Notes under the pieces: model-generated
What the model was told of the DNA's origin: nothing
The model's database searches: none
What the model saw: only the letters and a program-made list of their open reading frames with translations
From: an uncultured bacterium
GTDB taxonomy: Bacteria > Omnitrophota > Omnitrophia > Omnitrophales > Aquincolibacteriaceae
Assembly (NCBI GenBank): GCA_964385615.1
Contig: CAYLPP010000001.1
Coordinates: 256,484-320,483, forward strand
Length of the DNA: 64,000 nt
Direction: 5' to 3'
Shown here: one piece after another, positions 747 through 63,290 of the stretch
Numbering within the stretch: position 1 is the stretch's first letter
Layout of the letters: every line of letters begins with the position of its first letter
Position numbers and translations under genes: made by a program

Positions 747-822
747 TGGTGGCGGGGAGCGGGATCGAACCGCTGACACGAGGCTTATGAGTCCTCTGCT
801 CTACCAACTGAGCTACCCCGCC
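747..822 (-). tRNA. tRNA with CAU anticodon (elongator tRNA-Met or tRNA-Ile2/lysidine type), CCA encoded
   Basis: The reverse complement folds as a cloverleaf: acceptor GGCGGGG/CCCCGCC, D-arm TAGCTCAGTTGGTAGAGC, anticodon loop CTCATAA, T-arm AGCGGTTCGATCCCGCT, ACCA 3' end. G1-C72 is paired, so it is not an initiator. There is one A/G mismatch at the base of the anticodon stem (31-39). Confidence 0.75.
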
Positions 823-825
823 CCG

Positions 826-873
826 ATAAAAAAATGCTGGGCCGGACACGTCCTTCTTTAGAAGTGCCGGCCC
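826..873 (-). terminator. putative intrinsic terminator (imperfect 14-bp hairpin GGGCCGG...CCGGCCC followed on the minus strand by AGCA-TTTTTTT)
   Basis: Inverted repeat 839-873 with a run of 7 A on the plus strand (T on the minus strand) at 828-834. It lies downstream of the spacer RNA region and 5 nt upstream of the tRNA-CAU 5' end. Confidence 0.4.
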
Positions 874-880
874 TGTACTG

Positions 881-1045
881 AATCGAAGGATTCAGTGAGC
901 CCGGATGCACCCGCGCCTTTGCGCGAGCACCTCTCGGCAGAACTTTGAAAGTTCTGCCCGAGACGGGCCCTTTGGCGAACCTGTGCGGCCGCCGCAGGCA
1001 GTCTTCCTTAAACTGCCGCGACGCCGTACTTGTTCTTAGGAACAA
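881..1045 (-). ncRNA. candidate small structured RNA or degenerate tRNA-like element in the tRNA-Lys/tRNA-CAU spacer
   Basis: The 220-nt spacer contains an 8-bp hairpin GGCAGAAC-UUUCAAA-GUUCUGCC (936-958) whose 7-nt loop has U33 and a UCA anticodon-like triplet. A second GC hairpin is CGCGC-AAAG-GCGCG. A 14-nt copy of the tRNA-Lys 3' end (AGTGAGCCCGGATG, 894-907) can pair with GGGCCCG to form an acceptor-like stem. No D-arm or canonical T-loop is present. Confidence 0.25.
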
Positions 1046-1046
1046 G

Positions 1047-1119
1047 TGAGCCCGGATGGATTCGAACCATCGACACCGTCCTTAAAAGGGACGTGCTCTG
1101 CCAACTGAGCTACGGGCTC
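1047..1119 (-). tRNA. tRNA-Lys (UUU)
   Basis: Reverse complement GAGCCCG-TA-GCTC-AGTTGGCA-GAGC-A-CGTCC-CTTTTAA-GGACG-GTGTC-GATGG-TTCGAAT-CCATC-CGGGCTC-A is a canonical 73-nt cloverleaf with anticodon UUU. CCA is not encoded. Confidence 0.85.
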
Positions 1120-1156: not shown

Positions 1157-1184
1157 AATATATCTTGCACGGCACTTATGTGAA
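1157..1184 (-). promoter_or_regulatory. putative sigma70-type promoter for the tRNA-Lys transcription unit
   Basis: Minus strand reads TTCACA-16 nt-TATATT about 40 nt upstream of the tRNA-Lys 5' end. A GC hairpin (1188-1203) downstream of the frr stop overlaps it. Confidence 0.3.
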
Positions 1185-1213
1185 CCGCCGGGCTTTAGCC
1201 CGGGCTCGCGAAA

Positions 1214-3243: not shown

Positions 3244-4137
3244 TTATTTCCCGGCGCGGGTTTCTTTGCGGGGAGATTTTTTTACTTTGGATTTATCTTT
3301 TTCAACTTCAACGGCCTGTCCGGCAAAGCGGGCAGCCAGCTCTTCTTCAACGCGGTCCGTAGTCGGCGCATCTTCATCGCCTTCGGCGGCCGCCGTCTTA
3401 GCGGCTTCAGCTTCCGCGGCGGCTTCAGCAGCCTGCGCGGCCTGAGTATTCTTAAGCTGTTCACGGCCGTCAGTAATCGCCTGAGCGACCAGTTCACAGA
3501 AAAGTTTGACGGCGCGAATGGCGTCATCATTTCCAGGAATCGGGTAATTGACCAGATCCGGATCACAGTTAGTGTCCAGAACGGCAACCACGGGAATACC
3601 AAGCTTGATAGCTTCCTTGATGCCGATTTCTTCTTTCTTGGAATCAATTACAAAAAGAGCTCCGGGGAGACGGCGCATCTTGCGGATACCGCTGAGGTTC
3701 TTAACCAGTTTCTCGCGCTCTTTCTTGAGCATACCGACTTCTTTCTTGGTTACGAAAGAAAAGCTGCCGTCTTGCTCCATCTTATCGATCTGTTCAAGGC
3801 GAGACACAGATTTACGAATCGTTTCAAAGTTGGTCAGCATACCGCCGAGCCATCTCTGCTGAACATAAGGCATACCGCAGCGTTCCGCGGCTTCTTTCAA
3901 AGGCTCCTGGGCCTGGCGCTTGGTGCCGACCAGCAGAATTTCCTTACCTTCAGACGTGACTTGCTTAAGGTAAGCAAGGGCTTTTTCAAGACAGGAAAGG
4001 GTAATTTCCAGATTGATAATGTAAATGCCGTTTCTTTCCCCGAAAATGTACTTCTTCATCTTGGGGTTCCAGCGTTGCGTTTGGTGACCGAAGTGAACGC
4101 CCGCTTCTAAAAGTTGTTTGATTGTGACTTGAGCCAA
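3244..4137 (-). CDS. rpsB: 30S ribosomal protein S2 with Ala/Glu-rich C-terminal tail
   Basis: 297 aa; [27 protein letters not shown] is the canonical S2 N-terminus. A roughly 60-aa low-complexity AE-rich C-terminal extension follows. Confidence 0.95.
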
Positions 4138-6908: not shown

Positions 6909-7184
6909 TTACTTCTTCAAAGCTTTCTTAAGCTCGGCGCCTGCGGAAAAAGCAGGAACTTTGCGGGCTTTGATCTGGATGGTTTCCCCTGTTTTGGGAT
7001 TCCGGCCGGTACGCGCCTTTCTCTGACGGACGAGAAAGCTGCCGAAACCGATCAAGGAAACTTTCTGTCCCTTTTTAAGGGAACCCTTGATGGATTCGAA
7101 AATCGCGCTCACGGCTTCCCAGGCCTTAGCCTTGGAAAGCTGGGTCTTCTTGGCAACTTCAGCGGCCAATTCGGACTTGTTCAT
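6909..7184 (-). CDS. hup: DNA-binding protein HU
   Basis: 91 aa; MNKSELAAEVA…GFGSF…RKARTGRNPKTGE is the diagnostic HU/IHF fold sequence. Confidence 0.9.
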   Translation of the reverse strand: MNKSELAAEVAKKTQLSKAKAWEAVSAIFESIKGSLKKGQKVSLIGFGSFLVRQRKARTGRNPKTGETIQIKARKVPAFSAGAELKKALKK

Positions 7185-7298
7185 GGTTGAGTACTCCTTT
7201 CCTTCTGAATTACCTTTTTACCGAAAGGCTAAACGGCTGCCTGCTGAGTCATCTCTCCGGAACTCCCCAAGCCCCGGATTGAATTCACAGCGTGCGAA

Positions 7299-8318
7299 TC
7301 AGTACTGCTTCCACTCCTCATGGGCATCACGCTGAAGCAAATCCAACACCGCTTGGCGGGGATCCTTGCCCGTGAAAAGAATGTTATAAACTTCTCCGAT
7401 AATCGGAAGATCAACTTTCAAATTCTTGCAAAGTTCATGGAGGCTTTCGGCCGAATCGACACCCTCAGCCACCATCTCCATCCCGGCCAAAATCTCTTTA
7501 ATTTTTTTACCTTCCCCCAGTTCACGGCCGACACGAAGATTCCGGCCATGCTGAGAAAAAGAGGTCGTCACCAGATCACCCAACCCGGAAAGCCCAAAAA
7601 ATGTGCTCGGATTCGCACCCATCTTGGTGCCCAGCCGTGTCATTTCCAGTAAACCGCGCGAAATCAGACCAGCTTTGGTGTTATCACCGAACTTCAACCC
7701 GTCACAAACACCGGCCGCGATCGCGATCACATTTTTAAGAGCTCCGCCCAATTCCACACCAAGCATATCCGGCTGAACGTAAACGCGGAAATAGGTATCG
7801 ATAAAAGCTTCCTGTACGGCAACCGCGTCAGCCGAATTCAGTCCGGCAACCACCACAAGCGTCGGAATGTTACGGGCAACTTCTTCCGCGTGAGAAGGCC
7901 CTGAAAGCACGACCAGACGGACATTTTCACCCAGGATGGATTTAATGATCTCGGAAGGGCGCAGAAGGGTCTTCTTCTCAATACCTTTAGAGACCCCGAC
8001 AAAAATTTTCTGACTTAACCCAATCTCTTTGACCTTGAAAAGGACGTTGCGCAGAAACTGGGTTGGAATCGCCAGGACAATAATATCCGCGAATTCAACG
8101 GCTTCTTTGAGATCGGAGCTGATTTTAAGGTTGGAAGGCAGAGGAACGCCCGGAAGAAACTTGACGTTCTCTCGTTTTTGCTCGATGACTTTGGCGTAAT
8201 CCGGAAAAGCGGACCAAAGCATAACTTCATTATTCTTGCGCGCGTTAACAATCGCAAGAGCGGTTCCCCAACCGCCGTCCCCAAGGACTGTGACCCGGTA
8301 TTTTTTCATACTCTCCAC
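7299..8318 (-). CDS. gpsA: NAD(P)H-dependent glycerol-3-phosphate dehydrogenase
   Basis: 339 aa; the N-terminal VTVLGDGGWGTALA Rossmann motif and length are typical of GpsA. Confidence 0.9.
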   Translation of the reverse strand: MESMKKYRVTVLGDGGWGTALAIVNARKNNEVMLWSAFPDYAKVIEQKRENVKFLPGVPLPSNLKISSDLKEAVEFADIIVLAIPTQFLRNVLFKVKEIGLSQKIFVGVSKGIEKKTLLRPSEIIKSILGENVRLVVLSGPSHAEEVARNIPTLVVVAGLNSADAVAVQEAFIDTYFRVYVQPDMLGVELGGALKNVIAIAAGVCDGLKFGDNTKAGLISRGLLEMTRLGTKMGANPSTFFGLSGLGDLVTTSFSQHGRNLRVGRELGEGKKIKEILAGMEMVAEGVDSAESLHELCKNLKVDLPIIGEVYNILFTGKDPRQAVLDLLQRDAHEEWKQY

Positions 8319-62939: not shown

Positions 62940-63216
62940 TCCATCCTGCTTTCCATCTGAGTCGGCTGAAGAACAAATCGAAGGCTTATTCTAAACCAAG
63001 ACCGCGGTCTTGGAAACAGACTTGTGCCCTGGAACCGCCGGGTAGGCCCTATTTTTTTTTGCGGTATTCGAGGAAAAATCAGGTAAAATGCTTTTCTTTC
63101 GCGCCGTACTTGCGCGGCCGCCCTTTAGGGCAGCTGGCAGTAATGATAAATTCGCGCCCGCACTTGCACTCATGTGCAAGTACAGCGCTCGCACGGCTTA
63201 AAGAAAGCCGTGTCTC

Positions 63217-63290
<74 letters not shown>

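Follow-up and report, generated by a model that had tools for sequence, protein, structure and literature searches.

Why two neighbouring tRNA genes of an uncultured Omnitrophota bacterium should be held apart by densely folded sequence is the question raised by the left end of the 64-kb stretch of DNA analysed here (contig CAYLPP010000001.1, positions 256,484 to 320,483; called the window below, with position 1 at its first letter). On the minus strand of this end, rpsB, tsf, pyrH, and frr are followed by the gene of tRNA-Lys(UUU), a spacer of 223 nt, the gene of a tRNA with the anticodon CAU, and an open reading frame (ORF) resembling tilS. All tRNA genes of the cluster and all features of the spacer lie on the minus strand, which is therefore the tRNA-sense strand. 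An initial annotation had noticed in the spacer an anticodon-like hairpin, a second tRNA-Lys 3′ end, and a terminator, and had considered a decayed tRNA, a remnant attachment site, or a tRNA-like small RNA co-transcribed with tRNA-Lys. To answer the question, the window was compared with related loci, labelled L001-L174. The nearest genomes, judged by Frr, are metagenome-assembled genomes of Candidatus Omnitrophota, with 81% identity for L001 and up to 90% for metagenome relatives. We favour, with moderate confidence, the explanation that the spacer is a structured inter-tRNA spacer RNA, co-transcribed with its neighbours and composed of lineage-specific modules that were built by duplication and insertion at tRNA ends. 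The hairpins are maintained by compensatory substitutions, and the modules are gained, lost, duplicated, and inverted between close relatives, with a repeat of a tRNA end marking many of the boundaries. Because compensatory changes are accompanied by an asymmetry between G·U and A·C appositions and by the adjacency and co-orientation of the modules with tRNA genes, the structure is attributed to the tRNA-sense transcript, and it is on this strand that the fold appears to be selected.

Folded modules of the spacer

Read in the tRNA-sense direction, tRNA-Lys is followed by a module of two hairpins joined by a trinucleotide (module 1, hpA-UAC-hpB), a linker, an element with two hairpins, hp1 and hp2, that ends in a 14-nt copy of the tRNA-Lys 3′ end (the Y element), a second module of the first type (module 2), a tract of seven U residues (U7), and the CAU tRNA, which was called as tRNA-Met and is referred to by this name below. 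The spacer is best described as a mosaic of two tandem units, each consisting of a tRNA-type 3′ end, hpA, UAC, and hpB; the 3′ end of the first unit is supplied by the real tRNA-Lys, and in the second unit the Y element stands in place of the tRNA body. The fold of the whole spacer has a predicted energy of -114.5 kcal/mol (z = -8.3), and none of 200 shuffled sequences was as good. In module 1, hpA (1047-1028) is a stem of 8 bp with the loop CUAA, whose first pair joins the discriminator A1047 to U1028; UAC follows, and then hpB (1023-990) with the loop UUAAGGAAG. Module 2 has the same order, with hpA′ at 896-877 (loop CUUC), UAC, and hpB′ at 873-839 (loop region CUUCUAAAGAAGGAC), after which comes AGCA.

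The Y element between the two modules contains most of what had first drawn attention to the spacer. The hairpin with a UUUCAAA loop is real and stronger than had been described, since it contains an 11-nt perfect inverted repeat and extends to 12 pairs with one bulge (hp1); its loop is UUCAA (949-945), which can be drawn as the seven nucleotides UUUCAAA with UCA at 948-946. The GC-rich hairpin CGCGC-AAAG-GCGCG is also present and is the inner part of a 10-bp helix (hp2). The acceptor-like closing stem GGGCCCG/CGGGCUC, which the initial annotation had regarded as possible, was found in the minimum-free-energy structure: GGGCCCG of the linker (970-964) pairs with CGGGCUC (903-897) within the 14-nt copy, resulting in a Y-shaped three-way junction in which A896 sits at the place of a discriminator and three unpaired bases separate the closing stem from hp2. 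The 14-mer itself, CATCCGGGCTCACT, does occur twice in the window, at 894-907 and at 1045-1058, as had been reported; shuffled sequences contained it 0.02 times on average, and none of 100 reached two occurrences.

The two modules of the spacer belong to a larger family. In the window and the related loci, 13 full copies were found, each consisting of the 8-bp hairpin hpA, the trinucleotide UAC or UGC, and the longer hairpin hpB with a purine-rich loop; three copies are in the window, five in L083, two in L161, and one each in L163, L164, and L167. In the alignment of these 13 units (A1), 92.7% of 233 cells are paired, and changes on both sides were found in 13 of 18 pairs; none of 500 shuffles was as good, and controls with slid positions had 30-42% of cells paired. 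Within the module stems, G·U occurs in 11 cells and A·C in none, and therefore the strand that folds is most probably the tRNA-sense strand. Every copy adjoins tRNA-Lys, tRNA-Met, or tRNA-Arg and has the orientation of that tRNA. The start of hpA coincides with A73 of tRNA-Lys or, in L161, with A76 of the encoded CCA of tRNA-Met, the two copies of L161 being placed past tRNA-Lys and past this CCA. The loops of hpB follow the pattern YUAAGGARG (e.g., UUAAGGAAG, AAAGAAGGA, CAAGGAGG, or UAAGGAUGG), close to a Shine-Dalgarno sequence, and 10 of the 13 contain GGA. A tblastn search with CsrA gave no match in the sequence searched, a tiny part of each genome.

The third copy of the window lies far from the spacer, in the 5′ leader of tRNA-Arg(CCG). 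A 9-nt direct repeat, TCGCGCCCG, flanks it on both sides and takes in the 5′ acceptor strand of this tRNA (region 63152-63222). Just upstream of this module (63050-63160), a degenerate unit and a promoter-like sequence, TTGCGG...TAAAAT, were observed. The five copies of L083 form a tandem array (770-1053; 4.7 copies of a 60-nt unit with a 120-nt super-period according to TRF), located past tRNA-Lys and a Y element, and downstream of the array there is no ORF of note within the short contig. A type III antitoxin array of the ToxI kind was also considered and rejected: the two units of the spacer are not adjacent to each other and precede tRNA-Met and tilS, and no notable ORF accompanies the array of L083. 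A covariance model of the family (R1) matched the 13 training units and two partial units of L164 in 154 kb of the window and its close relatives, where nothing further scored above about 25 bits; it had no match in 683 kb of loci from other phyla. No Rfam family matched the modules, and with the spacer as query, blastn-short found only the spacer itself in the window and all loci. Taken as a motif, the modules are well supported as an RNA family that Rfam does not contain, that is tied to tRNA genes, and that appears confined to this lineage of Omnitrophota; its role we infer.

The Y element is also found outside of the window. L001 and L083 carry all three of its parts, hp1, hp2, and a copied tRNA-Lys 3′ strand, side by side immediately behind tRNA-Lys. 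Between the window and L001, 22 of 22 pairs of the Y element are kept despite five double changes and two changes to or from G·U; the 10 pairs of hp2 are all intact, one of them having changed on both sides and two on one side. The comparison of hp1 in four genomes (A5) showed 41 of 41 cells paired, double changes in 7 of 12 pairs, and an invariant UCAA. The MAFFT alignment of the three full Y elements misplaced L083, and the pairwise and hp1-only alignments were used instead. The closing stem, which has 7 bp in the window, has 4 bp (GUGU/GCAC) in L001 and is absent from L083. In L163, which shares the linker and the start of hp1 with the window, the base of hp1 is kept and the rest of the Y element is lost. 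The arrangement in L164 (Frr 87%) is different: at 3651-3701, an hpB carries in its apex the core of the Y element (hp1 and hp2) in inverted orientation, and the opposite strand still reads TCAA there. The local alignment score of this inverted core is 36 vs. 23 for the forward orientation, with shuffles at 13.1 ± 2.3 and a locus-wide null maximum of 31. No further copy of the Y core was found in the window, the Y-element pattern had 0 matches in viral contigs, and distant blastn searches of phage and plasmid collections were without a match.

Table 1. Features of the tRNA-Lys/tRNA-Met region and the distant module of the window, with the evidence for each.
Feature	Position	Strand	Evidence or remark
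tRNA-Lys(UUU)	1046-1119	-	ARAGORN; Rfam tRNA model, 70.8 bits at 1047-1119
Spacer between tRNA-Lys and tRNA(CAU), 223 nt	823-1045	-	ARAGORN and Rfam gene bounds
Trailer module 1	983-1048	-	pair counts of alignment A1; model R1, 68 bits
Linker, with GGGCCCG (970-964) as 5′ strand of the acceptor-like closing stem	964-982	-	folds
hp1, 12 pairs and bulged G957	933-962	-	11-nt perfect inverted repeat 936-946/948-958; alignment A5
hp2, GUGCUCGCGC-AAAG-GCGCGGGUGC, 10 bp	907-930	-	folds
Second tRNA-Lys 3′-end copy, CAUCCGGGCUCACU	894-907	-	2 matches vs. 0.02 expected; direct repeat
Trailer module 2	834-897	-	model R1, 71.2 bits; alignment A1
U7 tract, 6 nt ahead of tRNA-Met	828-834	-	read from the sequence
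tRNA(CAU), called tRNA-Met, CCA encoded	747-822	-	ARAGORN, Rfam
TilS-type PP-loop ORF, runs off the window	740-3	-	PF01171, 3.6e-49
Promoter-like site TTCACA-16-TATATT upstream of tRNA-Lys	1157-1184	-	10/12 consensus matches; consensus match only
GAGCCCG, repeating the 5′ acceptor strand of tRNA-Lys 88 nt ahead of this gene	1201-1207	-	at the foot of a hairpin after the frr stop codon
Third hpA-hpB module, 5′ leader of tRNA-Arg(CCG)	63161-63219	+	model R1, 55.3 bits

As for the flanking genes, tRNA-Lys ends without an encoded CCA, at the discriminator A1047, and tRNA-Met ends 6 nt upstream of the tilS-like gene. A tilS gene located about 30-270 nt downstream of a CAU tRNA was also seen in L001, L081, L161, L163, L165/166, and L173. 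Since tilS adjoins it in the window and in the relatives, the CAU tRNA may be the lysidine-containing tRNA-Ile2 rather than the elongator tRNA-Met. Its anticodon stem contains an A31·G39 mismatch, which is kept in the relatives. The small ORFs of the spacer (86 aa on the minus strand; 44 and 34 aa on the plus strand) overlap the tRNA genes, are not conserved as coding sequences in the relatives, and were rejected.

Transcription and possible processing

The promoter-like site upstream of tRNA-Lys is the sole one on the minus strand between positions 600 and 1400, and tRNA-Met, which starts 6 nt past the U7 tract, has no promoter of its own. Because there is a single promoter-like site and the gap between the U tract and tRNA-Met is too short for a promoter, co-transcription of tRNA-Lys, the spacer, and tRNA-Met from a common precursor is the favoured arrangement. 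The proposal of the initial annotation that a structured RNA is transcribed together with tRNA-Lys is thus borne out in its first half, by the compensatory changes and the asymmetry of the sense strand, while co-transcription itself we infer. Of the terminator placed just before tRNA-Met, the hairpin (873-839) and the U7 tract are present; however, the 7-bp GC foot of this hairpin (873-867/845-839) encloses a large loop and is separated from the U tract by the four bases AGCA, and a simple terminator scan gave no call. A canonical version of the hairpin with its U tract is carried by L167. The U7 tract of the window may be the tail of an attenuating terminator or a U-rich tRNA leader.

It is proposed that transcription from the site at 1184-1157 would give one precursor containing tRNA-Lys, the spacer, tRNA-Met, and possibly tilS. 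Within it, hpA, which begins at the last encoded nucleotide of the tRNA, would define or shield the site of 3′ processing and block 3′ exonucleases, and hpB with the U tract might attenuate transcription, stabilise the RNA, or likewise block exonucleases. In the genome of the window, the pseudo-acceptor stem stacked on hp2 could serve RNase P or RNase Z as a tRNA-like minihelix, and one or two stable hairpin RNAs would be released from the spacer. In these RNAs, the purine-rich loops, resembling a Shine-Dalgarno sequence or carrying GGA (YUAAGGARG), might then bind a factor.

Turnover at tRNA ends and competing explanations

In some relatives the hairpins of the spacer are kept by compensatory change, but others have a spacer of only 10-42 nt. 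The distance between tRNA-Lys and tRNA-Met is 10 nt in L165/L166, 42 nt in L173, 61 nt in L081, 81 nt in L001, and 223 nt in the window, and it grows to about 229 nt in L164, 385 nt in L168/L169, 388 nt in L163, and 1709 nt in L161. In the last of these, a 483-aa ORF without a Pfam family (1480-2931) lies between the two tRNAs. Insertions of the ISL3 type follow tRNA-Lys in L167, where the transposase is present (7090-8310), and in L162, where a similar end of an insertion sequence was found (approximately 3340-3560). Since the ORF of L161 and the ISL3 insertions of L167 and L162 occupy this site, the trailer of tRNA-Lys is regarded as an insertion hotspot. The sequence that follows tRNA-Lys in L082 (887-1012) is unlike all other spacers (…GGAAAGGAACAGGCCAUCCGGUAACGCCGCAUGCGG…), reaches the end of the contig, and has no Rfam match at the gathering score.

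The second tRNA-Lys 3′ end of the window sits in a longer repeat of 40 nt with 73% identity (868-907 vs. 1019-1058), which spans the tRNA 3′ end, the next hairpin, and a few bases. A perfect match of 14 of 14 positions within a 40-nt repeat that is 27% diverged would be expected by chance with a probability of about 0.73^14, or roughly 0.01, if the divergence is even; because the rest of the repeat has diverged to this extent, the perfect 14-mer needs an explanation. Possible explanations are selection on the copy (e.g., for its part in the closing stem, of which it forms the 3′ strand), recombination at a core of the attachment-site (att) type, or insertion with target duplication. Comparable copies were found downstream in relatives. 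A tRNA-Lys 3′-end copy of 19 nt bounds an insert of about 190 nt in L163, and one of 20 nt bounds an insert of about 283 nt in L168/169; these copies are identical to the T-loop variant of their own genome and end at the discriminator. L081 has a related insert, bounded by 18 nt copied from the 3′ end of tRNA-Met. The inserts that follow tRNA-Met or tRNA-Lys contain a second RNA motif (motif-2), GGAGC-P1-...-GAGG-P1′-GGRKGGCCKACCNNAG, in which P1 covaries, at L081 3807-3965, L163 3229-3395 and 3650-3790, and L168 6995-7126 (the same in L169). Three of these four instances end in a perfect copy, 18-20 nt long, of the 3′ end of the respective tRNA. Motif-2 had no match in Rfam and is absent from the window; in viral contigs, its 16-base pattern had 35 matches, about the rough chance estimate.

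Repeats of tRNA ends are not confined to the 3′ side. A copy of GAGCCCG was found 88-102 nt 5′ of tRNA-Lys in the window and in at least nine of the related loci examined (L001, L162, L165/166, L167, L170/171, and L173/174), about half of the related genomes, and is followed by a covarying hairpin; in L165/166 this repeat has 20 nt. In the related genomes without the upstream copy, tRNA-Lys lies close behind the frr stop codon, and for this reason a leader of about 90 nt looks as if it had been inserted at the tRNA-Lys 5′ end. In the case of the spacer itself, a local duplication or an insertion at the 3′ end of tRNA-Lys is the most likely source of the second tRNA-Lys 3′ end, rather than decay of a whole tRNA.

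Several of these observations weigh against the favoured explanation, according to which the spacer is a processed, structured RNA. Covariation cannot tell a folded RNA from a folded single-stranded DNA, and only the G·U asymmetry and the co-orientation with tRNA genes favour RNA. The tRNA-Met of the window and tRNA-Arg are without a trailing module, and the modules are facultative, as close relatives have a spacer of 10 nt; the element must therefore be dispensable and not essential for tRNA maturation. The step of a tRNA-like cut site is weakened by the lack of conservation of the closing stem, and the candidate terminator is non-canonical. The inversion in L164 would not be predicted from a function at the RNA level only, and it hints at mobility or recombination at the level of DNA. 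Together with the patchy distribution and the tRNA-end repeats at several tRNAs, this inverted core speaks against a purely RNA-level story. Explanations by RNA modules, by an integration scar, and by mobile elements are not mutually exclusive, and how the repeat arose is a question distinct from what the hairpins do at present.

The alternative that survives best, although we consider it unlikely, is that the spacer is the scar of a site-specific integration. It assumes that the 14-mer is the displaced tRNA fragment (attR), the 3′ end of tRNA-Lys is the regenerated one (attL), the 137 nt between them are the remains of a deleted element, and the hairpins are the ends of an element family. A regenerated target and a displaced tRNA fragment are the established concept for integrated islands (PMC4383910). 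The repeat fits it: it begins sharply on its 5′ side, in the T-stem, and stops where the tRNA ends, and a perfect core between flanks that are 73% alike is att-like. The longer cores of L163, L168/169 (both tRNA-Lys), and L081 (tRNA-Met), which match the variant of their own tRNA, the presence or absence of inserts among close relatives, and the use of the same spot by the ISL3 transposase of L167 and the 483-aa ORF of L161 point in the same direction, and the empty site is seen in L165/166 and L173. The attachment-site remnant suggested by the initial annotation is therefore supported in so far as tRNA-Lys 3′-end copies of 9-20 nt bound inserts that are present in some relatives and absent from others, but the expected machinery is missing: neither integrase nor cargo was found in the 137 nt of the window, which are non-coding, or at this site in the relatives examined, and the inserts of the relatives, 45-283 nt long, contain no plausible ORF. 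Moreover, a dead scar would decay, whereas hp1 and hp2 are kept by compensatory change across genomes whose Frr proteins are 74-81% identical; viral contigs and phage or plasmid records gave no match; and the copies of 5′ acceptor strands upstream of tRNA-Lys and tRNA-Arg would not be left by integrases that target tRNA 3′ ends.

The second alternative, which seems less probable still, considers the Y core, the hpA-hpB modules, and motif-2 as members of a group of miniature non-coding hairpin elements, mobile or recombinogenic, that reside at tRNA termini and duplicate a variable part of the tRNA end. It would explain why the same families occur at different tRNAs and are bounded by repeats of the respective end (9-20 nt for the 3′ end of tRNA-Lys, 18 nt for the 3′ end of tRNA-Met, 9 nt for the 5′ end of tRNA-Arg, and 7-20 nt for the 5′ end of tRNA-Lys), and it would accommodate the tandem array of L083, the inverted Y core within the hpB apex of L164, and the patchiness among close relatives. 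Yet none of the copies has a linked transposase, integrase, or reverse transcriptase, and no copy was found away from tRNA genes in the 64 kb of the window and about 100 kb of relatives. Module 1 of the window and the modules of L161 and L167 abut the tRNA without a repeat, the inversion in L164 could have come about when the inverted arms of the enclosing hairpin recombined, and the uniform co-orientation of hpA-hpB with the tRNA, like the 11 to 0 ratio of G·U to A·C, indicates selection on a transcript. A combined version can also be put forward as a speculation with little weight: miniature elements that target tRNA ends without a linked recombinase and duplicate 7-20 nt might subsequently be transcribed with the tRNA and released as stable RNAs, their Shine-Dalgarno-like loops titrating a cellular factor.

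The remaining alternatives treat the Y element as a tRNA, and the search for one was negative at each setting used. ARAGORN in default mode and in the relaxed modes for pseudogenes (-ps70 and -ps50) called the two real tRNAs and nothing on the tRNA-sense strand over 967-893; in the mitochondrial armless mode the sole call, a Ser(tga), lies on the opposite strand, and the tmRNA mode also gave spurious calls only. The Rfam tRNA model (RF00005) was silent in the spacer at E ≤ 10, as was every other family: scans of the window and ten related loci at gathering thresholds, and of the spacer and L168 at E ≤ 10 or ≤ 5, returned the real tRNAs and noise. The absence of a D-arm and a T-loop, already stated in the initial annotation, was found again in the sequence and in the folds, which show two long helices and no loops of the GG or TΨC type. 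That the Y element is a pseudogene, a decayed tandem duplicate of tRNA-Lys whose ends were kept while the interior drifted into hairpins, is very improbable. Its length is suitable, with 75 nt from GGGCCCG to the pseudo-discriminator vs. 73 nt for tRNA-Lys, the 5′ octamers GGGCCCGU and GAGCCCGU agree in 7 of their 8 letters, no difference is seen in the 12-14 nt at the 3′ end, and the trailer module behind the segment is likewise duplicated. The interior, however, had a global alignment score of 5 with tRNA-Lys vs. 6.9 ± 3.3 for shuffles, and tRNA-Met and tRNA-Arg score as high; since it is no closer to tRNA-Lys than shuffled sequence, the decayed duplicate is not supported. Drift would also not be expected to make near-perfect helices of 12 and 10 bp that covary between genomes, and the GGGCCCG strand is missing from L001 and L083, which still keep hp1, hp2, and the 3′ copy.

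Least credible of all, and already largely refuted, is a functional non-canonical tRNA without D-arm and T-loop that decodes UGA (tRNA-Sec or an opal suppressor with the anticodon UCA), because, even though UCA is invariant in the hp1 loop of the four homologues, the loop of the window can be drawn with U33 and A37, and an acceptor-like stem of 7 bp is followed by an A at the discriminator position, the structure lacks the acceptor/T-arm helix that is a requirement of bacterial EF-Tu/SelB and the ribosome and has no encoded CCA, the acceptor stem is not conserved (7, 4, and 0 bp), one homologue is inverted, the element is missing from close relatives, and a Watson-Crick pair closes the UCAA loop to a pentaloop whose preceding base is U, C, U, or A in the four homologous hp1 hairpins. 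The likeness to U33-UCA in the window is thus a local accident of a conserved pentaloop, and the reading of the spacer as a cryptic tRNA-Sec or suppressor fails.

Meaning of the modules and likeness to known systems

The first consequence of this analysis is that a false lead, a cryptic UGA-decoding tRNA at the spacer, has been removed. What is obtained in its place is a candidate RNA motif, supported by covariation, not represented in Rfam, linked to tRNAs, and found in a poorly known uncultured phylum. Processing of the modules from tRNA precursors, should it take place, would add a layer peculiar to the lineage to the maturation of tRNAs or supply stable small RNAs of a new origin; mobile modules would represent miniature elements of an unusual class that target tRNA ends. 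Hypervariable, repeat-rich tRNA flanks also matter for the annotation of Omnitrophota genomes and for the delimiting of islands, as copies of tRNA ends can be mistaken for island boundaries. A search of the literature on tRNA repeats in Omnitrophota found nothing relevant.

The closest parallel on the RNA side is given by the spacers of E. coli tRNA operons, whose fragments (3′ETS-leuZ and internal transcribed spacer fragments; Lalaouna 2015, as summarised in PMC8166272) can be functional RNAs. Like them, the spacer of the window is non-coding, lies between tRNAs, is structured, would presumably be set free by excision of the tRNAs, and has a terminator-like hairpin close to its end. It differs in being much longer and more structured (223 nt, six helices), modular, and repeated, in containing a copy of a tRNA 3′ end, and in its restriction to one lineage. 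With substrates of tRNA punctuation, i.e., minihelices cut by RNase P or RNase Z, it shares a 7-bp acceptor-like stem with an A discriminator beside a second helix and a putative cut that would release flanking RNAs; however, the 7-bp stem is present in the genome of the window only, and three unpaired bases precede hp2. The likeness to tRNA-Sec (selC) and opal suppressors is limited to a hairpin loop containing UCA and to a closing stem of 7 bp with an A behind it, whereas the D arm, the T loop, the long variable arm, and a model call are lacking and U33 and the acceptor stem are not conserved. The CsrB/RsmZ sponges resemble the modules in their repeated hairpins with GGA or purine-rich loops, up to five in tandem in L083, and in the terminator-like end, but the modules are linked to tRNAs, the window has only two such loops, and the loops are nearer to a full Shine-Dalgarno sequence than to ANGGA alone.

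On the DNA side, islands of the Islander type (PMC4383910) also have a direct repeat equal to the 3′ part of a tRNA from the T arm to the end, vary in presence or absence, and share with the locus a hotspot that is used in relatives. In contrast to them, the window has 137 nt between the repeats, no integrase or cargo, signs of structural selection inside, and copies of 5′ ends upstream of tRNAs. The REP/BIME, BOX, and Correia or MITE-like repeats are similar in consisting of short hairpin modules that occur in combinations and tandem repeats, are occasionally inverted, and keep their pairing despite sequence change; the modules described here differ from them in that they are not dispersed but lie beside tRNAs in the same orientation, have neither terminal inverted repeats nor a target duplication of fixed length, and show an asymmetry of the RNA type. 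Structured tRNA spacers, repeats of tRNA ends, and intergenic hairpin repeats are thus each known already, and the module family itself is tRNA-specific, lineage-specific, and unusually plastic.

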